Shown here: positions 8,120 to 21,429 of the stretch, in pieces
Position numbering within the stretch: position 1 is the first letter of the stretch
Layout: every line of letters begins with the position of its first letter
DNA from: Sedimentisphaerales bacterium
Lineage (GTDB): Bacteria; Planctomycetota; Phycisphaerae; Sedimentisphaerales; Anaerobacaceae
Length of the DNA: 64,000 nt
NCBI GenBank assembly: GCA_963708075.1
Contig: OY970194.1
Span: 6,496,001-6,560,000 of the forward strand
Direction: 5' to 3'
Notes under the pieces: generated by a model
The model's database searches: none
Seen by the model: the letters and a program-made list of their open reading frames with translations, nothing else
Told to the model about the DNA's origin: nothing
Translations under genes and position numbers: made by a program

Positions 8120-11100
8120 CTACTCAGCGCCCTGTTCACGGTATAGTGAGTCGAGAGACTTCAGTGGCTCCACTGTCTCCGACAGTCTTGGGGATACATC
8201 GTTGGGGTCGCGTATCAAGCTCGCCGTGACGAAGACCACGAGTACTCGTTTGGAGTTGTCCTCGTTCTTGAAGCCTATATGCGGCCCGAGCCACGAGAAG
8301 AAATCTGTTATGGAAGCACGCTGCGCGCTTGCCTCTGATCTGATCACGTCCGTCATTGCCAAGGCTACAGTACCGCCATCGTGGACCAGAATCCTATTGC
8401 TCGGTCGATCCAGTCTTACGGTCGGATGGTTGGCACCTCGAACGAGTGGCGTACCGCGCGTGACGCCATAGGCAAGCTCAAGGCTGACCTCGTTTTTGTC
8501 GCCGACAGACGGAATCACCAACACGTCAAAGGACCCGTCTTTGTCTACCAGGCCCACAGGATTGGTGCTACAGGTGGTCCAGGTGATGACTGGGAACTTC
8601 GATTCGTCGCCTTCTCTCCCCCTTATTTGCGGGTCCGCTACCATATCCAGCCGATTAGCCTGCTCAAGTCGGTCCAACTCTGCCATGAGTAGATCCGAGG
8701 GCACTCGGTCCGATAGACGACCTGCCCGCAGGTTGAGATCCAAGAGAATGTCGTCTTGGCGAATGTGATCTCTACTTCCGGGAGTCCATTCGATGCCGAG
8801 GTTCTGCAGATCGCGGGGTTCCATCGCGACGATGCGCGTGTCCAGCAGGACGAGGCGCTTGCGTGTGTCGTCTGTCTGTGGACTGCCGGATGCGCTCGAA
8901 TCACTCTGTGTTTTTGATTCGGGGGATGTCTTCTGTCGAGTGACTTCGTAATGGTCCGCCTTTTTCTTGACGACGTAGGGCGTGCCCGCCGTGACCATGC
9001 GGAGGGCGGTCTCCAGGGGCACGGCGTTCAACTCAACATCGATTTCTCCCGTGACATCTTCATCGACAGCAATGGATACTTCCGCGGCTGCCGCGAGATC
9101 CATCAACGCCAGTTGACGACTGACGCCACTGAATAAATTGCTGATCGGGCGGTAGACGAGATAGGTGCCTTGCGGCCAGGGGGATGTATTCGACTCTTCC
9201 TCGAAAGTACGCCGGCCCCTCGAAGCGACGAGATAGTAGTCTGGCGTCTTCCTGATGACGTAGGGTTTGCCGGCCAGGACCATCTCCAGAGCCGTCTCCA
9301 GCGAGACATCCTTCATGTCCGCATATACCGATCCGGTCACCGTCTCGTCGGTGATGATCGGCACGCCGGCCATGGTGGCAACATCCTGAAGGACCAGGCG
9401 CAACTGGTCGCCCTGCCATACGTTGGTGATCCGAGGCCGTTCCTGTCGGGCAATTGTGCTCTCCCCGATCTTCTTGAACACGTACGGCGTGCCTGCCAGA
9501 ATCCGGCGAAGCGACTCCTCGACGGAAACGCCGGCGAGTTCGGCCGTAATAGCCTGGGGCTTGACCGTCTCATCAACCGCAATCCTCACCCCCCCGCGTC
9601 TGGATATCTCCGCCAGCACTTCTCGCAGGTCCACGTTGGCGAATGTTGCGGTGATCGGGTCGCCAAAGATGCGGGTAGTGACTTCCCCGGATGATTCTCT
9701 GAATCCTCCCATTCCGCCCATCCCGGGGGCGATCTCATTCGCACCGGTGTCGTCGATAGGGCCCTCCAGGATGGTCGGCATCGCCATGATGTATACGGAC
9801 TCCTCGTCCTTGCCCGGCGCCGGCATATTCCACTCGGTCGTCCCGGCAAGAGTGATGCACTGGCCGCTATATACGGTGGCGGCTGCCTGAACGATTCTCC
9901 GCCGCACAACCGGCACGTCCGCGCCGGCGGAAGGCCGAAGGACGTCGGTCGTCCCGACCACGATCTCCAGGGTGACAGCATTGTGGTCACCAATGTGCGG
10001 GGTCAGGTCTATTTTGACCCCGGCCTCGATTCTCTCCAGCTTCCCGGGCTCTGAGGAGCCGTCGGCAGGCGGTGCGGCACGAATGTACTCGTCATGACCG
10101 ATTCTAACCTGGCACTCCGTTCCGTCTCGTGCCACGACCCGCGGGCTGGACAGGACCTCCACGTCCTTAAACAACGGAAGGAGGGCGTCCATCGTCTCGC
10201 CCGGCAGTGATTCCTGGACGACATGATCGCGGAGGACCTCGCCGACGGTCAGGTGAAAGCGAGGCCCGAACTCGCCGGCTCGTCCCTCAGGCCGGACCCG
10301 CTTGCCGAGGATCTCCTCTATCTTCAGCACGGTCTCGCGGTCCAGCTCGCTGCTGTCGACCGCCTTGACGACCTTGATGCCCACTTGAACATAGGCCTTG
10401 TCTGCCTCTGCGTCATTGGGGTCAGACGCGGACAGTTCAGCGACCTCGGCGGGTGCTGTTATCCCAGGCCCGTTGATCGTCGGCCGTACGAGCAGGATGT
10501 GCAGACGCTTACCGGCGGTTCTCGTCCTCCTGCTGCGGCGTGCCCCTCACGAAGACTGCTGAGTATTCATTGTTTCGAGCAATGAGCATCCATGCCATTT
10601 TTGTCGCAATCATTCGTTCGTTGGGGTCGGCGGGGTCGTCGACCAGATGGGTGAGAGCCAGTTTCGCATCAATCACTACCGCGTTCGGATCGTTCGGTAG
10701 AGAGACTGTGGTTTCCAGTCTCATGGAGCCGAGTCCATCCTCTTCCGAGGCTGCTTGAGGCACAGGAGCATTCGCGTCTTGTGCCTCGCCGATCATGATA
10801 GCCCCGGGTTGCCCCGGGAGCAGCAGAATTGTCGGATTGCTCACTATGCGAGCGTAACCGCGGGACACGAGGAGGTCCACGAATTCCTTGTCCTTGTCGC
10901 GTGCGAGCATGACCCCGGAGAGGGCATCCGCCAGAGGCCGCTGGAGTTGCTCAAGGCTTGGCTGGGGCAGGGGCCCGATGACGCGGCCGGAATTTCCTGC
11001 CGGCCTGCGCAACAGCAGGGTTCTCGCTTCCGCCGCCGTCTGCGGGTCGAGCGTACGGTCGGCGGAAACCTCGACGAGAGTGTAGCTGACCATGACCGGT

Positions 11101-12275
11101 GTGCGTGCCGGATCATTCGGCTCTACTTCGGCCTGCACAGCATCCGCCAACGCAGCGAGATCGTCGGCCGCGGGACCAGGCGGACGGGCATCTGCCCTCG
11201 CCAGGGCGAGAGCCGCAGGGATTGCGACGCCGGCGACGAGCAGCAGGGTGATCAGGCCGGGCAGCCAGGCGAAGCGTCTGTCATCGGCTGTGGGTCGGCC
11301 GAGCAGGCGGGCGATGCGGTCAAGCAGGCTGCCGCCGGTGGCGGCGATGGCCAGCTCGGCCTGGCTGTGGCGGATTTCCTCCAGGCAGGTCAGCGCCCGG
11401 GCATATCGCACGGAGTCGCCGCAGACGCACACGGCCATGTCGTCACAGCAGTTCTCCCGCTCGATGCGAATGCGGTGAGAGACCCACCAGACGGCCGGAT
11501 GGTAAAAGCCGAGGATCTCCACGACCGTCTGCAGCACGTTCACGAGGTAGTCGTATCGGCGGATGTGCGCCAGCTCGTGGGCGAGAATTGCCTCCAGTTG
11601 CTCGGGGCTCAGGCCGGTCAAGGCGCTGGCGGGCAGCAGGATCACCGGGCGCAGCCAGCCGACGACCGTCGGGACCTCGACGAGGGCCGACTCAAGCAAT
11701 GTCACGGCCCGGTGAACGCCGAGCCGGCCGGCGATCTGCGCGAGTCGCCGCTGCAACGCATCGCCAACTCGGTGGACCATGCGGCGTTTCAGCCGCTGCA
11801 ATTGCATCCACCCGCCGAGATGCCACGCGGACAGGCCGAACACGCCGACCAGCCAGCCCAGCACGGCATACGGCAGGGCGGGTTCAAGCGCCGACGTGAT
11901 TCGCTCGTTCCAGGGGACGGGAATAGCCACGTCCACAATTTCCAGCGGCACATCAGAGAGCGTGAATGGCTCATCGGGCATCTGGGCGACGGTCGCAGGC
12001 GCTGCAGTGGTCACTAATGGCTCGGGCTCAGGGCCCGCCTCCGCGGCAGGCCCCCGAACCTCGATAAACTGCATCGTTGCGATGGGCAGCACGACCATCA
12101 GTGTCAGGGCTGCACAGGCGGTCAGGTATCGCACGTTTGCGCTGCTTCTTCGCAGCAGCCGCAGGAAGCCCGCCAGGAGCATTGCCACGACCGTCGCTTG
12201 CCAAAGGAAATGCACCAGCATCCAGCCCAGCCGCTCCACCGTCGCTTGGGAAAGCAGGTTCTCCAGCCACAACAT
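8120..12275 (-). CDS. BlaR1-type M56 metallopeptidase fused to secretin-like and STN-like domains (split by a +1 frameshift at 10517-10523)
   Basis: HELAH + RENCCDD M56 motifs; secretin-type LSSPRV...GVKIDLTPHIG...VTLEI; STN-like FANVDLREVL repeats. Removing one base joins ...EDE-TAGKRLHIL... into one ORF. Confidence 0.8.
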
Positions 12276-12658
12276 TATTGTCCCTCCAAATCATCGAGCA
12301 TTTGTCGGATTCGCTTCAATTCCTTCGGCGAGACCTTCTTGGCGGACAGGGCTCGCAGGACGAGCTTCTCCGCCGAGCCGGCAAAGACCCGGTCGAGCAG
12401 GTCGCCGATCAGTTGCTTCTGCGTGCGTTCCTCCGAGACAGTCGGTCGGTAGATGTGCTTGTGTCCGCCGGTCTCGCGCACCAGCAGGCCCTTGTCCACC
12501 ATGATCTGCATCAGTTTCAGCGTCGTGGTGTAGCCTGTCTCTTCCTCCTGCTTCAGGGCTTCGTGCACGTCCCGGACGGTGCTGGGACCCTTGTCCCACA
12601 GCACGCCCAGGATCGCCAGCTCCCGATCCGTCGGACCCGATGTCTTCTTTCGCGCCAT
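12275..12658 (-). CDS. BlaI/MecI/CopY-family repressor
   Basis: PTDRELAILGVLW...TVRDV...GYTTTLKLMQIM..KGL; translationally coupled to the M56 gene. Confidence 0.95.
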   Translation of the reverse strand: MARKKTSGPTDRELAILGVLWDKGPSTVRDVHEALKQEEETGYTTTLKLMQIMVDKGLLVRETGGHKHIYRPTVSEERTQKQLIGDLLDRVFAGSAEKLVLRALSAKKVSPKELKRIRQMLDDLEGQ

Positions 12659-12702
12659 GACTTTTCTCCTTAATCTCTCCCCGCCTTTTCCATATCGGCA
12701 GG

Positions 12703-12743
12703 TTACGAATGAATTCGTAATAAATCAACGAAAAAATTCGTAG
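12703..12743. promoter_or_regulatory. Putative BlaI-type operator pair
   Basis: Perfect palindrome TTACGAAT-GA-ATTCGTAA (12703-12720) plus an imperfect copy at 12726-12743, directly upstream of the repressor. Confidence 0.7.
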
Positions 12744-12984
12744 TAGCATAAAAATTTCTCGCGGGCAAGGGAAGAACTTCTGACGGGAGAGCCGGCAAGT
12801 ACCACTGGAATGTCATTCCCGTGCAGGCGGGAATCCAGGAACCTGTCGAATGGTCCTCGCTTGGCGAGTCGGGTGACAATCCTGCTCATACTGTTGCAGG
12901 CTCTTGCCGGGAAGAGAGCCTTCGCGATGCACTGCGAGGGCCTCTGCTTCAGTGGGTCTCTCCTGCCTGGCGGGCATTTGCGAA

Positions 12985-15501
12985 TCAGAGGTCTTCTCTC
13001 TCCTCCGTCACAAACCAGACCTCCGCCGGCTGCTTCTCGACTCTGAATTGAAGGCCGGTCTGTCTTGCGAGGTTGTTCAGCAGCGCGGGCAGGTACGTCT
13101 CCTTGTCGATGACTCGTTCCGGGTAGGTGTCCATGAGAGCATCGCAAGACAGGTACCGGATCTTCCCGGTCGGTACCGGATCGGTTCTGTCGTCGATGGC
13201 GATGTTGATACCGTCCGCAAGTTGACGAAGCAGGTCAGCCAGAGAATCCGCTTCGCCTGTGTCCCCGTCCTCGGACAGAGGTGTGTCTCTGGTGATGCGC
13301 AGACAGAACTGATTCGGATCCTCGTCAGGCAAGGGCGTTGGAGTGTAGCGACCCGTCACGACGATGGTGTCTCGCTCGACCGTGCGTTTCTCAAAGCGGA
13401 TCGACCGGCATATCTCTGTGCGGAGGATCTCCTCCAGGGCCCGGAGTTTCTCTTCGACGGAACACCCGTCGCGGATGATCCAGTCGCCCTTCGGAAAAGG
13501 CACACCCCGGAGCTCGTTGGGGACGACGAAATCGTAGTCGGGGATGCCTAGCACCCAGTTCAAAACGCTTCGGGCTCTGGGCAGATTCACGCCCCCGTAC
13601 CAGGCGCCTCGCTTGAGTTGACCGTCCCAGCGAAACCCGCCGCAGATGTACCAGGCATCGACGAGAAGCACGTTGAGCCCACCCTGGCCAAGGCACATGT
13701 CGACCATATAGTCCTGATGCTCGGGCATGAAGGGCGGCTTGACAAGTTTCACCACTTCGCCTTCATCAAGGCGGTATGTCTTGTCGAAGGGTTTCCGCCA
13801 CTCCGTGCGTTGTGGCCAGTCATCGGCGATTGGCCTGACCGGGTCCTGCGGCTCCAGTACCGCCGTGCCCACGTCGATTGTATCCTTGCCTGTCTCCGAC
13901 GCGGCCAACGGGACAGTCTTCATCACGTAGTCGGGGGCGAGAAATCGCAGTCGATACGCATGGTCACGTGGCAGCGCACTAAGCCTGAACTTACCTTCGC
14001 CATTTGCATACCCCGCGGAGATGGGGGTCTGAGGTTGGGGCGGGTCGTCGAGGAATACAATGACGAGAGACTGGGGGATCGGTTGACCGTTGGAATCGAG
14101 CAGGCGCCCCTGAAGTGTGAGACCAGGCTCGAGCCTGACTACGGCAAGGGACGCGGGATCTTGGACTTCCACCATGGCGGCCAAATTCTTATGTCTTTCC
14201 TGCACGACGAGGCAAGCGTTGGTTCCTTCAGCCACCCACGTCGGCGACCAGGGCACTTCGAAGTACCCCTGCCCGTTCGGCTCAACTGCATAACAGGTCA
14301 TGGGCAGGGCGGTCACGTGCACGGGACTGTGACTGAGAGGGTCATTATTCGGGTCCAGCACCTGGCCTCGTATCGTGACGCCCAAGGCGAGCTGCTCGAC
14401 GCACGCGCCGTGGCCGATAGTGCTCTTGACGAATTCCATCGCCTGCACAAACCTCGTCTGAGCGAAGGCGAGGCCGACGGTGATGCAGGCGGTCAGGCCA
14501 ATGGTAGCAAGCGTCCAACGTGGGCCGCTGCAGGGGTTGCTGCATTCGTCCCGGACGATGCGGCGGATGCGGCCGGCGAGTCGCGTCCTGGTGGTCACCA
14601 CGGCGGGGATCAATGCCGCCTGGCCCAGAGCGGTCAGACCCAATAGCGTGCGTGCATAACGCGTGCCCACCTGGCCGGAGGCGATCACCCAATCGTCGCA
14701 GACCTCTTCGCTCAGGTCCGCCAGCCGCCAGCGAACCAGCCAGGAGAATGGCTGCCAGGGCAGCAGGCAGATCATCAGCTCGGCAAGCAGCGCGCTGACG
14801 TGATCGTGCCGCTTCCAATGGGCCAGTTCATGACACAGGACGCTCGACCAATCGAGGCGTGCGTCGCCGCGGGAGCCGCTCGGCACGAGCAGAACCGGCC
14901 GTCGGCCCCAGCACCAGATGACCGGGCTGCGCGCGTGGCCGCTGGCACGCACGATCACATTGTCTTGGACTCCCAGCTTGGCCTTTGCACTGTCGAGGGC
15001 CTCCACGATTGGAGCGCTCTGTGCCGGCGCAGAGCGTCTGACGAGACTCAGACCCAGGAGCAGCCGAGCCAGTAATCGCAGCAGCAGAGTCGAGGTTGCC
15101 CCGAGCCACAGCAGTGGCAGGGCGGTTTGCCACTGGAACCTGGGCGTCACAGGTGCAACCGTCCTTGACAGCGTCACGCCAGCGCCGGCTGGCTCAGCGG
15201 CCGTGTCGCTCACCGGGGCTGGAGCGGTCGTTGCAGGGTCAGTCTCTACGAAGAACGGCTGAGCTTCGCGGATGGAGATTGTTCGCTCCGCCACGAACAG
15301 TCCCCATTGATTCTGTCGCACCGCGTGGCTCAGTGCGGGGATCAGGATCGCCGCGAGCAGCGACAGCAGCAGCAGTTGATGCGCGCGGACCGGCCGGCGC
15401 CGCAAGAGAATACTGCCTGCAAGTCCCGCCGCCAGGCAAGCTGTGCTCTGCCAGGCCAGCGGCCAGAGCCACGGATGTTGTGTGAAGACTTCGCTGATCA
15501 T
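12985..15501 (-). CDS. BlaR1-type M56 metallopeptidase with carboxypeptidase-regulatory-like (Ig-fold) sensor domains
   Basis: HELAHWKRHD, EEVCDD; GQVLDPNNDP and GRLLDSNGQPI repeats. Confidence 0.9.
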   Translation of the reverse strand: MISEVFTQHPWLWPLAWQSTACLAAGLAGSILLRRRPVRAHQLLLLSLLAAILIPALSHAVRQNQWGLFVAERTISIREAQPFFVETDPATTAPAPVSDTAAEPAGAGVTLSRTVAPVTPRFQWQTALPLLWLGATSTLLLRLLARLLLGLSLVRRSAPAQSAPIVEALDSAKAKLGVQDNVIVRASGHARSPVIWCWGRRPVLLVPSGSRGDARLDWSSVLCHELAHWKRHDHVSALLAELMICLLPWQPFSWLVRWRLADLSEEVCDDWVIASGQVGTRYARTLLGLTALGQAALIPAVVTTRTRLAGRIRRIVRDECSNPCSGPRWTLATIGLTACITVGLAFAQTRFVQAMEFVKSTIGHGACVEQLALGVTIRGQVLDPNNDPLSHSPVHVTALPMTCYAVEPNGQGYFEVPWSPTWVAEGTNACLVVQERHKNLAAMVEVQDPASLAVVRLEPGLTLQGRLLDSNGQPIPQSLVIVFLDDPPQPQTPISAGYANGEGKFRLSALPRDHAYRLRFLAPDYVMKTVPLAASETGKDTIDVGTAVLEPQDPVRPIADDWPQRTEWRKPFDKTYRLDEGEVVKLVKPPFMPEHQDYMVDMCLGQGGLNVLLVDAWYICGGFRWDGQLKRGAWYGGVNLPRARSVLNWVLGIPDYDFVVPNELRGVPFPKGDWIIRDGCSVEEKLRALEEILRTEICRSIRFEKRTVERDTIVVTGRYTPTPLPDEDPNQFCLRITRDTPLSEDGDTGEADSLADLLRQLADGINIAIDDRTDPVPTGKIRYLSCDALMDTYPERVIDKETYLPALLNNLARQTGLQFRVEKQPAEVWFVTEEREDL

Positions 15502-15902
15502 TGTTTGCCCTCCTCTTTTGTTTCCCGCTCTTTCTGTTCGATCAGGTGTTTCAATTCGCCGAGTTCGTCGGCGCTCAAATTGCCCTCGCGGATCAGATGC
15601 TGGAACAAGGCGATCGCGTTGCCGGCGAAGATGCTATTGAGGAACTGCCGGACCGAGCCGGCGCCGGCCTGGTCGCGCGTCTGTGTGGGCAGGTACACGT
15701 AGCTCTTGCCCTCGGCCCGATGCCGGAGCCAGCCGGCCTTTTCCAGCTTCTGCATAGCCGAGAGAACCGTCGTATAGGCAAGCTGTTTCTTCTGGGCGAG
15801 CCGATCCCGGACTTGGTGCACGTTGGCCTCGCCCAGTTTCCACACGGCTTCCAGAACTGCCCGCTGAAGCTCCCCCAGATCGTCCAATGGTTTGCGTGTC
15901 AT
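15498..15902 (-). CDS. BlaI/MecI/CopY-family repressor
   Basis: LGELQRAVLEAVW...LAYTTVLSAMQKLEKAGW; overlaps the M56 start (ATGA). Confidence 0.95.
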   Translation of the reverse strand: MTRKPLDDLGELQRAVLEAVWKLGEANVHQVRDRLAQKKQLAYTTVLSAMQKLEKAGWLRHRAEGKSYVYLPTQTRDQAGAGSVRQFLNSIFAGNAIALFQHLIREGNLSADELGELKHLIEQKERETKEEGKQ

Positions 15903-15951
15903 AGGCTTATCTCCATGCGAAGAAGGACACCAACCGTTGCTACTCCAGTAC

Positions 15952-15980
15952 ACAGTACTACGCATCGTAGTAGATTGCAA
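15952..15980 (-). promoter_or_regulatory. Promoter with embedded operator palindrome
   Basis: TTGCAA-17 bp-TACTGT; TACTACG-CAT-CGTAGTA (15956-15972) lies in the spacer. Confidence 0.7.
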
Positions 15981-16153
15981 GCGAAAAATGTGAAAATAGG
16001 CAAGAATTTCTATGGAACGCATGGGGCGGTAGCACCATGCCGTGTGAGAATAAAGAAACGAGCCCGGCATCGCGTGATTGCCAGGCCCGTCGTAAGTCTT
16101 GGAGCTTGTAGGGGCGGGTTTCAAACCCGCCCGTACGGACGCCCGATGCGTCT

Positions 16154-18190
16154 TTACTCTTCCTCTTCCTCCTTCTTCTTGCCGTACTGGGCGACGATCT
16201 GCTGCTGGACGTTCGGGGGTACAGGCTCGTAGTGGCTGAGGGTCATGGTGTAGCTGCCCCGGCCGCCGGTGACGCTTTTGAGCTGGCTGGTGTACTGGGC
16301 CACTTCGGCCAGAGGGACCTGGGCTTTGACGATGATGTAGTTGCCCGGCAGCATGTCCTGCCCGACGACGCGGCCTCGCTTGGAGGACAGGTCGCCGGCG
16401 ATATCGCCCACGTTTTCAGCGGGGATCGTGATTTCGATGTTGACGATGGGCTCGAGCAGGACCGGCTTGGCCTTTTTCACCGCGTCGATGAATGCGCCCT
16501 TGCCCGCTGTGCGAAAGGCCACTTCCTTCGAGTCTACGGGGTGATACTTGCCGTCGGTGACGGAAACCTTAACGTCCTGCATCGGGAAGCCCGCGATGGG
16601 GCCGCTCTGCATGACGTCATTGACGCCCTTGAAAACGGCCGGCTCGTACTGGCCCGGGATCGTGCCGCCGTAAATGTCCCAACTGAACTGCAGCGGCGGG
16701 TCGCTGCCGCGATCGGCGGGTTCGACATTCAAGTACACCTCGCCGAATTGGCCGGCGCCGCCGGTCTGCTTCTTGTGACGATAGTGCCCTTCGGCCTTGC
16801 CCGTGATCGTTTCTTTGTACGGGATCTTGGGCTCCTTTGTGTTCACGGACAGCTTGAAGCGGTTCTGCATCTTCTCGATCATGACGCGAAGGTGCAGATC
16901 ACCGAGCCCCTGGGCCACCAGCTCCTTGGTCTGCATGTCGCGGGTGGTCCGGAAGCACGGGTCTTCCTCGCGCAGCCGGTCCAAGGCGCCACCGATTTTC
17001 TGCTCGTCGCCGCGGGAGGCCGGCTCCATGGCCAGGGCGAACATCGGCTCCGGGAACGCGGGCATATCGAACTTGCCCGACACCCGGCCGTCCGAGACGA
17101 GGTCTGCGATTCTCAGCTCCTCGACCTTGGCGAGCGTGACGATATCGCCCGCGACGCCAGTGTCGATTTCTTTGATCTCGCCACCCTGGGATTTGAGGAT
17201 ATGCCCCGGCCGCACGCCCTTCTTCTCGTCGTTGCGAATGAGGTTCGTATCGGACTTGAGCGTGCCGCTGAAAACGCGGATGCTCGAGTATTTCATGTTG
17301 GATCGCGGATCGAACGCCACGCGGAAGACGATTCCCGCCAGCGGCCCGGCAGGATCGGGTTTCAACTCGGATGCGTTCTCGTCGCCGACCAGCTTCACCG
17401 GCCCGGCCTGGAGCGGGGAAGGCGTGTACTTCGTGATGAAGTCCAGCAGCTCTTTCACGCCCATCTCATGCTTGGCGTCGGTGAAAACGATGGGCACGAG
17501 CGTTCCCGCAGCGAGGGCTTTGACGAACCCGGAGGCAATCTGCCCGGCGGGGATCTCTTCGCCGCCAAGGTATCGCTCCATCAGGGCGTCGTCCGCCTCG
17601 ATGACGCTCTCGATCAGTTGCGTATGAGCCTCGGCCACGTCCATCACAGGGGAGCTACCGCTGCTGTTGACGATGCAGTCGATGACGGAACTCTTGTCCG
17701 CCGAGAGCAGATTGGCACAGCGGCACTGCGAGCCGAAGGTCTCCTGAATCATGTGAATCAGCTCGGGCAGCTCGAGGTTCTCGGCATCGACCTTGTTGAT
17801 AACGATCACGCGGGGCTTCTTCTGCTCCCCGGCGAGCTGGAACATCTTTCGGGTATTGGTCTCGATGCCGGCGGCGGCCCCGATAACGATGATCGCCGTC
17901 TCGGCGGCCGGGATCGCCGCAATCGCCGGACCGACGAAATCGGGGTATCCCGGCGCATCGATAATATTGATCAGTTTGCCGTCGTACTGGGCGAACATGA
18001 CCGACGCCAGGATGGAGTGCTGATGCTCCTTTTCCTCGTCGTAGTAGTCGCTGACGGTGCTCTTCTCGTCAACGCTTCCCAGCCGGTTGATCGCCCCGGT
18101 GAGGTGCAGGATCGCCTCGGCCAGCGAGGTCTTGCCGCTGCCGCCATGTCCTAACAGAACCACGTTCCGAATGTCGCCCGTTGCCGTCAC
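16154..18190 (-). CDS. Elongation factor G paralog (EF-G II / FusA2-like)
   Basis: GHGGSGKT, DAPG, NKVD, KKQTGGAGQFG, YHPVDS, LLEPI. Switch I is QHSI rather than RGITI. GTG start with GGAGG RBS. Confidence 0.93.
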   Translation of the reverse strand: MTATGDIRNVVLLGHGGSGKTSLAEAILHLTGAINRLGSVDEKSTVSDYYDEEKEHQHSILASVMFAQYDGKLINIIDAPGYPDFVGPAIAAIPAAETAIIVIGAAAGIETNTRKMFQLAGEQKKPRVIVINKVDAENLELPELIHMIQETFGSQCRCANLLSADKSSVIDCIVNSSGSSPVMDVAEAHTQLIESVIEADDALMERYLGGEEIPAGQIASGFVKALAAGTLVPIVFTDAKHEMGVKELLDFITKYTPSPLQAGPVKLVGDENASELKPDPAGPLAGIVFRVAFDPRSNMKYSSIRVFSGTLKSDTNLIRNDEKKGVRPGHILKSQGGEIKEIDTGVAGDIVTLAKVEELRIADLVSDGRVSGKFDMPAFPEPMFALAMEPASRGDEQKIGGALDRLREEDPCFRTTRDMQTKELVAQGLGDLHLRVMIEKMQNRFKLSVNTKEPKIPYKETITGKAEGHYRHKKQTGGAGQFGEVYLNVEPADRGSDPPLQFSWDIYGGTIPGQYEPAVFKGVNDVMQSGPIAGFPMQDVKVSVTDGKYHPVDSKEVAFRTAGKGAFIDAVKKAKPVLLEPIVNIEITIPAENVGDIAGDLSSKRGRVVGQDMLPGNYIIVKAQVPLAEVAQYTSQLKSVTGGRGSYTMTLSHYEPVPPNVQQQIVAQYGKKKEEEEE

Positions 18191-18290
18191 TTTTTGACCT
18201 CCAACGACGTTTCCAGAATTACACTTACCTTTGAAAACTGCCAATACTACTACGTTTCCAGGGGATACTCAAGGGCCTTTTTCTGCGAAT

Positions 18291-19093
18291 AATTGGCTTT
18301 GTTTCGCACAACGGCGCCTGCCTGTAGGGGCGGGTTTGAAACCCGCCCGTAAAGCCAAGGCGTTCTTCCGGAGAGTGTGAAGTGTGAAGTTTGAAGTGTG
18401 AAGCTGGGTAGTTCCATGGCTGGCCCCTCCTGCCTGACGCCTGCAACTTCAAACTTGCAACTCCCGACAAATTGGCTTTGTTTCGCACAACCCATTCTCC
18501 ATCCGCCTGCGGGCTCTCGGAATTGGCTTTGTTTCGAATGGCCGGGGCTACGTCATTCAGTAGCATAGGCTGCGCCCACCGCTCGTCCGGCAGGACCAAT
18601 TGGCTTTGTTTCGCACGACCGATCCTCCTGCGAGCCGGCATGCTCTCGAAATTGGCTTTGTTTCACACAGTCCGTCGTCTGACTCCCTGCTGCCTGTCTC
18701 CCGGCAATTGGCTTTGTTTCGCACGGTCGGGCACACGGAAACCTGCACGTCTCGTAGGCGGCTGTGCCCACCGGCGGCCCCATCGCCGCAGAATTGGCTT
18801 TGTTTTCGCAGACGCGCCCTCACCATCTTGCTCCCATAACCTTTTCCCAGAACAGGACTTAGCGCCTATCCCGCCCTCCACGAATTGGCTTTGTTTCGTA
18901 CGGCATGGCCTTCGCTTGACACTTCACACTTCCAACTTGAAACCTCTTTCCGATTGGCTTTGTTCCACACACCTGCATACGCCTGTCATCACACAGCCCG
19001 GCTACGCATCCTCCCGTCTTTCAATCCGCAGTCCGCAATCAACAATCCGCAATCTCCAGGGCTCCCAGCCCCGCGATTGGCTTTGTTTCACAG
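18291..19093 (-). repeat. Array of 10 interspaced ~19-bp direct repeats (AATTGGCTTTGTTTCGCAC on +)
   Basis: Copies start at 18291, 18470, 18521, 18598, 18650, 18706, 18792, 18883, 18952, 19075; spacers are unique, ~32-160 bp. Confidence 0.92.
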
Positions 19094-19158
19094 AATCGAT
19101 CCTTCCGCCAAGCCTGTTTCTTCTCCGCCGGTAGAATCCGCCGGAACTCGGGGGAACC

Positions 19159-19410
19159 TGCCGACGGGGCGTCGGCAAGCGAGTTTTTCGCATTGAGGCC
19201 ACCCGCATGATAGATCGCACGCACCGCTGGTCACCTGTGCCCTGGAAAAGGACGCCAGCCCGAACCATGCTGGAGGCCATGAAGCGGCAAACTCCCATCG
19301 CGAAGCGACGGAACCAACAGTCCCGTCTCACGAACATAGGACACAAGCCATCCGCCGGACCTTGCGGGGAACAAGTTCGGCTCGCTTGTCACAACTCGCT
19401 ATTCAATTAT
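19159..19410 (-). ncRNA. Candidate structured non-coding leader RNA (family not recognised)
   Basis: Follows a near-consensus promoter. 8-bp closing helix 19393-19400 / 19178-19185, GNRA-capped stems (CC-GCAA-GG, TC-GTGA-GA), hairpin CCGTCG-CTTCG-CGATGG, 3' hairpin TGCCGACG-CCC-CGTCGGCA. No convincing ORF. Confidence 0.55.
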
Positions 19411-19416
19411 TCAGGA

Positions 19417-19445
19417 ATTGTACAAACGACCATATTTTCTGTCAA
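19417..19445 (-). promoter_or_regulatory. Near-consensus sigma70 promoter firing into the leader and repeat array
   Basis: TTGACA-17 bp-TACAAT. Confidence 0.8.
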
Positions 19446-19650
19446 GCGAAATCCGGAAGAATGCCGAGAAGTTTCCCGGCCGGAACCGAGATCGACGTCC
19501 CGGAAGAAACCTGTAGCCCAGCCGCCCTCGGCTGGGGGACTCCTCTTGCCCTTCCGGCCTGTCCGAAGAGGGTGAAAAGTGGCCCGGGCCCGCTCGTAGG
19601 GTGGGTCCTTGACCCACGCGGTTGTCTTCCCGGAATTCTCGCTTGTCCGC

Positions 19651-19679
19651 TTGACGTGCGCGACCGGACAAGCTACAAT
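19651..19679 (+). promoter_or_regulatory. sigma70-like promoter (divergent from the array promoter)
   Basis: TTGACG-17 bp-TACAAT. Confidence 0.6.
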
Positions 19680-19954
19680 TGCGGGTGGCATTTGGAGAGA
19701 ATCGCGTGGTGGCAGTACAGGAGACGGACAATCTTAGGGACTCGCCCGGTGCGGACGCGGCAGTGGTCGGTTCACGCGTGGCGGGGGGGGGGGAATGACA
19801 TCCACAAGCAGCCTGAAGTTGTTGGATCCCCCGCGCGAGGCGCTGCGGTCACGTTATGGTCGCCGGCGTGTAGTATCAGGACGACAGAAGAAATAGGTAT
19901 GACGTCCCCCGAATTCGGACATCATGTGTTGCATCTAAATTCTGAGCTGATTAC

Positions 19955-20623
19955 ATGAGCAAGTGTAAAGGAATAAATCGAAAAGGAAAAGGCTGTGGAA
20001 GTGATCGCATGCCTGGGTCTGAATACTGCGAGGCGCATCAGGACCAAGCGCCAAAGCGCGGAAGGACAGATAACCACAACACTATACAAGAAGAAAAGGC
20101 ACAGGTTCCGACCAAAGTCGGCAGAGTATCGCGTGTTATAAAGTTAGCATGTAGTCTAATTGGCCTCTTATCTGTCCTACTCAATTTCTGGCTAGGTTAT
20201 TATTTCATATTACCTAGGGTAACAGCGTCCATAGAAATGCCCAGCAACAGTAATTTCCCATTTGAATCGCACATAAGTATTGCGAATAACGGCAACTTTG
20301 CAATCACGAATGTTGTCTGCTCCTTGGAGGACAGCAAATTGAGTGCAAGTGTTAGTACTCCCCTTACAATGTATACACATGACCGCGAGGGCAAATTGGC
20401 TGGCAAGCGGGTTGTGCGATTTCCTGAGATAAAGGCAGGACATTCTGAACCATTGGAGCTTGCAAAGATGTTAGGCCTTGTAGGGAGTAGAGCTGACTCC
20501 GCATCCTTTTCACTGAAGATCAGTTATAAGCCTGCGTTTCTGTCTATAAAGACTCAGGTCTTTAGATTCAAGCTCTTCAAGACCGTAGATGGAAATTATA
20601 ATTGGCTTGAGTCAACAATCTAG
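19955..20623 (+). CDS. Low-GC hypothetical membrane protein with N-terminal Cys/His motif
   Basis: CKGINRKGKGC...YCEAH, then one TM helix and a beta-rich domain. Visibly AT-rich compared with the flanks. Confidence 0.75.
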   Translation: MSKCKGINRKGKGCGSDRMPGSEYCEAHQDQAPKRGRTDNHNTIQEEKAQVPTKVGRVSRVIKLACSLIGLLSVLLNFWLGYYFILPRVTASIEMPSNSNFPFESHISIANNGNFAITNVVCSLEDSKLSASVSTPLTMYTHDREGKLAGKRVVRFPEIKAGHSEPLELAKMLGLVGSRADSASFSLKISYKPAFLSIKTQVFRFKLFKTVDGNYNWLESTI

Positions 20624-21273
20624 TGCTCTTTCCAGTAGGGGAGAGCAAGATCAGGGGTCAACTCTTGACACTTGACAGCCCGCGTGGAATCGCGGGGCAT
20701 TCGAGGTCAACTCTCAGTGCTTGACCATCGGCATAGACGCGGGTGGGGTCTGAGTCACGGCCAGACCGATACGAGTGGAGTACGCGGATGCGGTGGACCC
20801 TCGAATCGAGAGGTTGTGGTGGAAAGCCACAACGGAATGAAATCCGAAACAAGCACGAATGCCTGAAGCCCGAAATTTGAAACGGGCATGTCGGCCTGCG
20901 GCCGCGTTTCCGTCATTCAGATTTGGGTCGTTAGGGTTTGTTTCGGATTTCGCGCTTCGTGCTTTCTGCCGTCGCGTTCCTTGCTTCAGATTTCTCCGGC
21001 GATTACCTGACGGGCGGGACAATTCTCGAATAATTTTTGCCGGGGGACATCGTATTTGGCGGGGGGGATTTTATGGGGCGATTGATGCAGGTGCGGACGG
21101 GCGGCGGGGGAGGGGACTACAGGTTGTGGGTTGAGGCGGGGGCGGGGTTGTCTATTGGGGGTTGGGTTATGGGGCATTGGGGGCGGCGGCGTCGCGACAT
21201 TAAAGTGGCGACTGTTTTCTGCCGATATGGCGGCAAGTCTGGGGTGAAGATTTAGAGTCACTAGGAAGGACGC

Positions 21274-21429
21274 ATGAGCATGGATAAGAAGGAACTGATC
21301 GACCGGATCTGCGAAATCAACAAGAGCGCCAAGCCCGAATTCCTTGCCAAGTTTTCCGAGCAGGAGTTGAACGCCTATCTGGAGCATTTGGCGGGGGCGG
21401 ATCTGGCCACGGCGAGCGTTTCCGGCTGA
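21274..21429 (+). CDS. Small hypothetical protein (51 aa, not in the ORF track)
   Basis: AGGAAGG RBS; MSMDKKELIDRICEINKSAKPEFLAKFSEQELNAYLEHL... with host-like codons and an amphipathic helical pattern. Confidence 0.7.
   Translation: MSMDKKELIDRICEINKSAKPEFLAKFSEQELNAYLEHLAGADLATASVSG

Follow-up and report, generated by a model that had tools for sequence, protein, structure and literature searches.

What kind of sequence is the array of interspaced direct repeats that precedes an EF-G paralog in this Sedimentisphaerales genome? The array lies in a stretch of 64,000 nucleotides (contig OY970194.1, positions 6,496,001 to 6,560,000; hereafter the window, whose coordinates are used unless a genome position is given), and a preliminary description of this DNA had taken it for a CRISPR-like architecture of unknown type with unique spacers, which might be an array whose transcript is processed at the repeats, a multivalent protein-binding RNA or a set of recombination sites capturing short pieces of DNA. 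We assign a probability of about 0.9 to another reading, namely that it is a non-autonomous, gene-less copy of a small dispersed gene-plus-repeat element. In its full form this element comprises a palindromic box, a promoter, a single gene for an all-helical protein of ~180 amino acids and then at least one repeat on the same strand; often two repeats enclose a box, giving a repeat-box-repeat unit of 90 nt. In this lineage the repeats have expanded into arrays of interchangeable cassettes that absorbed other small genomic repeats. Recognition as a known protein-coding repeat or as the end of a known element had been foreseen as another outcome; there was no family match, and no published description of such an element was found in the incomplete collection of literature searched.

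The anatomy first reported is all present. On the minus strand, TTGACA-17-TACAAT (19445-19417; 11 of 12 consensus matches) is followed by a leader of ~320 nt and by ten repeats in the same orientation (Table 1), the last of which lies, as claimed, ~100 nt upstream of the EF-G paralog. Counted from the promoter, the first five 19-mers are at 19075-19093, 18952-18970, 18883-18901, 18792-18810 and 18706-18724, and the last five at 18650-18668, 18598-18616, 18521-18539, 18470-18488 and 18291-18309. The 12-nt core is invariant in all ten copies, and the start-to-start spacings are exactly those given earlier: 179, 51, 77, 52, 56, 86, 91, 69 and 123. From the promoter side onward, the nine cassettes belong to families B, A, C, D, C, none, D, none and A. 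The repeat is neither palindromic nor a hairpin, and its conservation is indeed that of DNA rather than of a peptide. A 407-nt contig of run X1 equals 18490-18896 with zero differences; since it possibly comes from the source sample, it is not an independent confirmation of the array. Joints in metagenome contigs were left out of account, since their sides are short and match other arrays as well. The box within the core cassette is presumably an IHF-like site, judging by the IHF consensus, and three HU/IHF genes are present in this genome. An Rfam scan gave two chance matches below the gathering score, neither of them in the array, the window has no tRNA or tmRNA gene, and folding of the whole putative transcript (with no shuffle control at that length) yielded no interpretable structure.

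Table 1. Features of the EF-G2 locus in window coordinates.
Feature	Position	Strand	Basis or remark
EF-G paralog (EF-G2 type), host gene outside the element	16154..18190	-	NCBIfam PRK12740/PRK13351 above cut-off
EF-G2 host promoter, right after the last repeat	18244..18272	-	sequence; visibly conserved in congeners
Array, 10 direct repeats bounding 9 cassettes	18291..19093	-	
REP-like hairpin (18319-18357) and second heptamer run (18374-18403), in last cassette	18319..18403	.	
Core cassette, conserved 91-nt repeat-box-repeat	18805..18895	-	box scores 25.1 bits, offset 33
Palindromic, IHF-site-like box within core cassette	about 18837-18861	-	
Heptamer run in first cassette (family B)	19022..19054	-	
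Leader, ~320 nt	19095..19410	-	piece of another dispersed repeat; without detected element-gene remnant
Sigma70 promoter block, element-type	19395..19475	-	promoter HMM; conserved flanks
-35 and -10 of that promoter	19445-19440 and 19422-19417	-	
5' flank: REP-like hairpins and a stretch common to the 5' flanks of two other arrays	19500..19790	-	

The 7.5-Mb genome contains 231 exact copies of the 12-nt core, where Markov models predict 0.4-0.6; these copies form 47 clusters, each confined to one strand; a looser repeat pattern has 301 matches, and there are 37 arrays with at least three repeats and 42 with at least two. Since the core is multicopy and clustered genome-wide, the EF-G2 array is one member of a dispersed family. 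Extending the scan to relatives, as had been suggested, we found the exact repeat in 18 of 18 congeners, at 7-794 copies per genome (0-1 for a reversed control). The strand bias of the arrays with respect to the replichores is not significant (16 vs 25, p = 0.21).

Within the EF-G2 array the spacers are unique, as stated at the outset; genome-wide, in contrast, seven of the nine have relatives in other arrays, as do 174 of all 237 spacers, and cross-array pairs share the same orientation in 1126 cases and the opposite one in 37. The spacer families come from unsupervised clustering only, which left 69 of the 237 unclassified. Only six of the 237 are at least 70% covered by a match outside arrays, and such matches are small genome-wide hairpins and heptamer runs; the hairpin and heptamers of the last cassette of the EF-G2 array are also widespread outside arrays. 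On these grounds we reject the idea that spacers are captured unique host DNA. The proposal of recombination sites comes close to the cassette pattern, and a CRISPR-like array of unique acquired spacers is not supported, given the common spacer families, the six of 237 covered outside arrays and the missing Cas1 (no PF01867 match in this genome, which is 92.8% complete).

Cassettes behave as discrete units. Their boundaries are exact, repeat to repeat, and tandem duplications occur within arrays. The family E cassette (87 nt) is 82-90% identical between gene-bearing arrays and two gene-less ones in which its neighbours differ, and no adjacent cassette pair common to two gene-less arrays was found at the score used. 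Of 28 gene-less arrays, 13 begin with family B, where 4.8 would be expected, and none of 5000 draws reached this count. A boxed cassette is found in 18 of these 28 arrays, exactly once in 17, and in none of five gene-bearing ones; the EF-G2 array has one. Its fixed length, together with its single occurrence in 17 of the 28, suggests selection. The box also precedes many element promoters, but it is absent before the promoter of the EF-G2 array. Growth of arrays by addition at the 3' end was considered and is disfavoured, because sibling elements have a common 3' tail and differing inner cassettes.

A search for co-distributed genes, which had likewise been suggested, identified one unannotated gene with a core protein of ~180 amino acids, directly 3' of which lie nine arrays. 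In seven of these nine the frame remains open through the whole array, and in one it stops in the last spacer; the ninth copy is frameshifted and split by a transposase-like gene. The latter, of 393 amino acids, splits a gene-bearing array at G000:C1:4779101-4780283 (G000 being this genome) and presumably resembles ISAs1. Among arrays of at least four repeats the frame is open in 5 of 5 gene-bearing and 5 of 28 gene-less ones (p = 0.001, siblings not being independent). Five of the gene copies occupy unrelated sites with a mutual identity of about 90-95%; a 3' tail is common to seven. For the four closest intact copies we obtained dN/dS ratios of 0.20-0.31, compared with 0.24-0.65 in the remaining pairs. 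The C-terminal tail of the protein is variable and repeat-derived, the latter in 109 of 120 homologs.

The link between gene and repeat extends well beyond this genome. The gene has matches in 16 of the 18 congeners (1-22 per genome), and the draft genomes G006 and G011 have repeats without a gene match. Among 150 genomes of the class, the gene is present in 9 of 9 with at least five exact repeats and in 9 of 141 others (kin not being independent), i.e. in 18 of 150. For a cross-phylum comparison we used the best 80 of 574 GTDB loci, which span Planctomycetota, Bryobacterales (Acidobacteriota), Alphaproteobacteria, Zixibacteria and others. Downstream of the homologs in these best 80 of 574, the repeat is the top de novo 9-mer; where there was enough flank, it was found downstream in forward orientation at 61 of 74 loci and in reverse at 15 of 74, and upstream at only 1 of 64. 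The linkage is kept across phyla at about 35% protein identity. No neighbouring gene is common to more than three of these best 80 of 574 loci, nor is there a recurring integrase neighbour among them; the element has one gene and measures about 1.6-1.9 kb. In other genomes 39 of 97 distinct repeat-to-repeat units have a length of 88-93 nt, and in most of these a palindromic box lies at a constant offset. At E <= 0.001 the element protein matches 23,376 clusters at 50% identity, many of them probably through the N-terminal motif alone.

In some relatives (L001, L002, L004, L007-L009) the repeat also forms inverted, MITE-like pairs whose members are separated by 55-280 nt and which lie either downstream of the gene or on their own; such pairs also occur at 15 of 74 GTDB loci (from the best 80 of 574). 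Three IMG/VR viral contigs (L189, L192, L193) contain element-type genes with downstream repeats and are a possible inter-host vehicle.

How is the EF-G2 array tied to this gene? The preliminary description had listed promoter, leader and array as one architecture. The promoter does travel with the arrays: an HMM built from the promoters of eight other arrays matches that of the EF-G2 array (E = 1.1e-7, 34 bits), so that nine arrays are matched in all, and the best non-family site of the genome reaches only 11.6 bits. The same HMM matches gene-bearing elements elsewhere (L020, 2e-5; L068; L071), and 10 of 32 gene-less arrays keep the promoter or leader of a gene-bearing element (E < 1e-5), a few of them with the first codons. 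The leader, on the other hand, is not unique, being 74% identical over 299 nt to G000:1334107-1333823 and recurring in parts at seven further places in the genome; neither gene-start nor leader models detected a decayed element gene in it. Since the array has the element's promoter family and the 91-nt cassette, we regard it as a gene-less derivative; as it has neither a gene remnant nor a box before its promoter, the tie to the gene runs through promoter, repeat and core cassette. As a separate observation, the middle of the leader is a second dispersed repeat (G000:C1:502409, 4734797, 5172586, 5236384), some copies of which are bounded by a variant of the array repeat and one of which lies just after a tRNA/tmRNA-like 3' end.

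Comparison of orthologous sites suggests that these sequences are mobile or have been so. None of the 22 congeners compared carries the array at the EF-G2 site, and for 19 of them the flank available measured 900 nt or more. The close relative L145, whose EF-G2 is 90% identical, has the same promoter and one repeat there. Identity between the EF-G2 array and L145 starts inside the last repeat, at about 18297, and the junction with host DNA is at AATT; the EF-G2 promoter marks the host side of this 3' junction. The gene-bearing element at arfB is absent in four of five relatives. The clpX site, with 2 repeats here, has 10, 1, 1, 0 and 0 in five relatives; a leuA-like site has six repeats in one of five and comB one repeat in one of five. 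No forward repeat was found in relatives at the typA, flavodoxin and sigma sites, and one array-downstream gene had no ortholog in five relatives. Sibling elements of genome G013 share variable lengths of common flank at both ends (17 loci), i.e. their ends are ragged; no target duplication was seen at five element ends in this genome, and terminal inverted repeats around the gene are missing, the repeat lying upstream in 1 of 64 loci (from the best 80 of 574).

Searches of NCBIfam, Pfam, PHROGs and PDB sequences assigned the element protein to no family, and none of the best 120 longer homologs has a Pfam domain. Fold searches (Foldseek, VIA, ESM Atlas) gave no significant match, the best being TerS at E = 0.28, and the other fold matches are generic hairpins with Z of 8.7 or less, Tas chains among them at Z 6.5-7.5. 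The protein had no match in phage records and three partial ones in plasmids. Its N-terminal 45-residue motif, however, recurs in 60 viral loci. When 33 proteins from motif-bearing viral loci were scanned, six matched the TerS family phrog_9231 and five of the next genes matched TerL (phrog_2), and one motif-bearing viral protein passes the Pfam Terminase_4 cut-off. Profile matches to two phage protein groups reach 99.2% (residues 1-45) and 98.3% (residues 13-69), for phage proteins that had been found with that same motif. An AF2 model (pLDDT 85.8) begins with two N-terminal helices, which are followed by a long helical hairpin and then by the variable tail. In a four-copy model the protein forms a side-by-side oligomer, with a score of 0.75 against 0.13 for the best control, agreement between runs in at least 68% of contacts and pLDDT of at least 74; neighbours pack through two different faces of the hairpin. 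In a two-copy calibration, which is rough for four copies, 20 of 30 solved homodimers scored at or above the oligomer mark, as did 1 of 23 monomers, and a pass can arise from likeness to solved rings. The plan of the AF2 model, with N-terminal helices, a helical hairpin core and a flexible tail, is the one described for TerS, whose C-terminal tail binds TerL in lambda and P22 (PMC9611059). The sequence matches and the model both support the reading of the element protein as a TerS-derived oligomer.

With the odds roughly balanced, a terminase-like mechanism is our best reading, ahead of all four rivals considered below. The TerS-derived protein would form an oligomer and attach to the repeats with the aid of a bend that IHF/HU makes at the box, much as lambda TerS binds R3-I1-R2 of cosB; this binding is suggested by analogy. 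The complex may then recruit a nuclease in trans, most plausibly the large terminase of a helper phage, which would cut near the repeats; such a borrowed nuclease is postulated. The cut DNA would be packaged, or repaired by short-homology recombination. The outcomes are seen in the sequences, namely spread to new sites with ragged ends, duplication of single cassettes and their movement between arrays via repeats, and cutting followed by packaging or repair would be the cause. The gene-less EF-G2 copy would be acted on in trans by the eight intact gene copies. More tentatively, and at odds we would put below even, these may be minimal selfish elements found across phyla, each consisting of a terminase-derived gene and a cos-like repeat-IHF-repeat site and spreading with the help of a borrowed phage terminase, with gene-less derivatives turning into shuffling cassette arrays; the borrowing could equally tentatively take the form of packaging, of lateral transduction or of the cut alone.

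The resemblance to lambda is one of plan and not of sequence. Lambda cosB is laid out as R3-I1-R2-R1, an IHF site separating the TerS sites R3 and R2 (PMC4856287). The element likewise has repeated sites with an IHF-like box between two, and further an N-terminal module in common with phage TerS proteins, a modelled side-by-side oligomer of helical hairpins and a flexible tail. Unlike the phage system, the element has no TerL, capsid or cosN-like site found nearby, and its gene stands alone in many chromosomal copies, not beside TerL in a packaging module (80 loci, the best 80 of 574), with one-stranded sites that expand into cassette arrays. Phage satellites (SaPI/PICI, PLE) combine a mimic of the pac/cos site with a TerS that is either their own or borrowed (PMC11417361; PMC6687093); the TerS-like gene beside a short conserved site recalls them, and it too would need the TerL of a helper. 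Compared with these satellites, the element differs in having no integrase, replication or regulatory gene among its common neighbours (80 loci, the best 80 of 574), in its size of about 1.5-2 kb against islands of 10-20 kb for PICI and PLE, and in having dozens of sites per genome, with gene-less derivatives outnumbering full copies. Several further points count against a terminase: the match to TerS is limited to residues 1-45 (13-69 in the second profile), the tail is variable and repeat-derived just where TerL binding would be expected, and packaging accounts for spread between cells better than for multiplication within one chromosome. This genome has no phrog_2 match for a large terminase, and 53 motif-bearing phage loci contained no repeat arrays, only 18 single fuzzy matches. 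The drafts G006 and G011, with repeats but no match to the gene, also speak against it, as does the lack of a significant fold match.

One may also consider explanations other than a terminase. The element protein could be a new transposase or recombinase that, once bound to the repeats, cleaves at their 3' AAT(T) edge and links them to targets, the element then being an IS-like unit and the arrays integron-like cassette stores. A standalone, multicopy gene without partner and under purifying selection would suit this, as would its near-invariant R, K, H, W, R and Y residues, the exact repeat-to-repeat boundaries, the last repeat meeting host DNA at AATT relative to L145, and the inverted pairs of some relatives (15 of 74 loci, from the best 80 of 574). 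We nevertheless consider it unlikely, since the libraries searched gave no nuclease or recombinase fold or family match (DDE, HUH, serine, DEDD), several copies in this genome have His or Phe in place of the conserved Tyr, and the AATT junction comes from a single comparison. Like IS and MITE sequences the element is multicopy with empty orthologous sites, yet unlike them it lacks terminal inverted repeats around the gene and target-site duplications, and its flanks are ragged. In integrons the IntI integrase is encoded next to attI and the cassettes carry attC hairpins. As in integrons, the promoter precedes oriented, exactly bounded cassettes, which turn up one at a time in various arrays; the arrays differ from integrons in that the gene has no recurring integrase neighbour (best 80 of 574 loci), the repeat is not an attC-type hairpin, and the cassettes, of 32-375 nt, are gene-free. 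Somewhat less probable still is a passive mosaic, BIME-like junkyards arising from slippage, gene conversion and RAYT/Y1 action on REP hairpins, in which the gene only seeded the repeat and no longer acts on it. Cassette interiors are indeed genome-wide REP-like hairpins and heptamer runs, cassettes are duplicated in tandem within arrays, and the genome has 13 Y1-transposase matches (PF01797), a possible route for the hairpin content, one of them (481697-481957) ~650 nt upstream of an array; RAYT can recombine BIMEs in vitro (PMC3333891). As in BIME/REPIN systems, then, a Y1 transposase is at hand. BIME/REP mosaics with RAYT (PMC3333891) and other intergenic repeats such as BOX, MIRU and MITEs (PMC3184786) resemble our arrays in being dispersed, intergenic, modular and variable between relatives, in having GTAG-type hairpins and an IHF-like site, and in that some copies read as ORF tails. 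Our unit, in contrast, is a non-palindromic direct repeat that is strictly unidirectional in this genome, and not an inverted REP pair or a terminal inverted repeat; REP-like hairpins are confined to cassette interiors, the gene to which the repeat is linked does not encode a Y1 transposase, and the array has an element-specific promoter. A passive origin also sits poorly with a gene-repeat linkage that persists across phyla at about 35% protein identity, and with a boxed unit of fixed length present exactly once in 17 of 28 gene-less arrays.

The two remaining explanations we hold to be improbable. An array transcribed and processed at its repeats into CRISPR- or TIGR-like guides, or acting as a multivalent RNA sponge, would make sense of the strong family-specific promoter kept in nine arrays, of an A-rich core predicted to be mostly unpaired in RNA (mean 0.6-0.9) and perhaps of the open frames in gene-bearing arrays (5/5 vs 5/28), which could favour a full-length RNA. 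An unpaired A-rich core is, however, expected from composition alone, the spacers, of 32-375 nt, fall in common families of junk repeats, and there is no Cas1, no Rfam match of useful score and no conserved leader. CRISPR arrays have spacers of near-constant length, unique and of foreign origin, and TIGR-Tas systems a dual-repeat array of fixed period with a Nop-domain Tas protein. Our arrays resemble both in having a promoter, a leader and interspaced direct repeats with polarity (family B first). They depart from CRISPR in their variable spacer length, their common spacer families and the tie of about 40 arrays to a non-Cas gene, and from TIGR-Tas in the lack of a fixed period and of a Pfam family for the linked protein; as the preliminary description had noted, neither system fits, the units being variable (32-375 nt genome-wide, 51-179 nt in the EF-G2 array). 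Least probable of all, by a little, is a domesticated host system, in which the protein would act through its dispersed sites to organise the chromosome or to adjust nearby promoters (those of EF-G2, clpX and typA, for example). Its appeal is that 31 of 42 arrays point toward a same-strand downstream gene (by crude gene calls) and that the clpX site carries repeats in four of six genomes compared; against it stand sites that are mostly not conserved between congeners, exact-repeat counts ranging from 7 to 794 within one genus, and a gene match in only 18 of 150 genomes of the class. As EF-G2 has a promoter of its own (18272-18244), it does not need the array as its leader. For each of CRISPR, TIGR, PICI, classical IS/MITE and BIME, a defining feature is missing from the element.

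The findings tie a specific 14-nt DNA site of fixed geometry to a protein family that is very large, lacks annotation and occurs in Planctomycetota, Acidobacteriota, Alphaproteobacteria and others, which makes the family directly testable with one protein and one 90-bp DNA. Were the terminase reading true, the elements would be among the smallest phage-dependent mobile elements and would offer a route for chromosome-wide transduction in uncultured sediment bacteria; were they selfish elements as well, the gene-less arrays may make dozens of chromosomal sites into packaging start points. The anatomy alone explains a common class of spurious "hypothetical proteins" whose tails derive from repeats, as they do in 109 of 120 homologs, and it cautions against calling such arrays orphan CRISPRs.

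The surroundings of the array deserve a few remarks. Its 5' flank contains a stretch with two genomic relatives, G000:1334375-1334145 (82% identity, 234 nt) and 5316602-5316405 (80% identity, 198 nt). A hairpin and the promoter (19420-19540) look inserted into this stretch, which is contiguous at G000:1334375-1333823, yet in the relative L145 the same promoter is found at this site in front of a different leader. Farther upstream lies an orphan gene of 222 amino acids (19955-20623, plus strand), to which a near-consensus promoter at 19651-19679 (plus strand) points. The N-terminus of its product gives a weak zinc-finger-like match, a membrane segment is probable, and the gene falls in ~2.5 kb that congeners lack upstream of EF-G2. 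At 20800-20970 there is an inverted heptamer-type end repeat with about 14 genomic relatives that holds a word like the array repeat; in L145 two heptamer-type end repeats bracket a different inserted gene. A small conserved ORF at 21250-21410 (plus strand) is syntenic upstream of EF-G2 in most congeners. On the other side, downstream of EF-G2, the region 8120-16124 (minus strand) encodes what are, judging from the translations, probably two tandem BlaI/BlaR-like regulator pairs.
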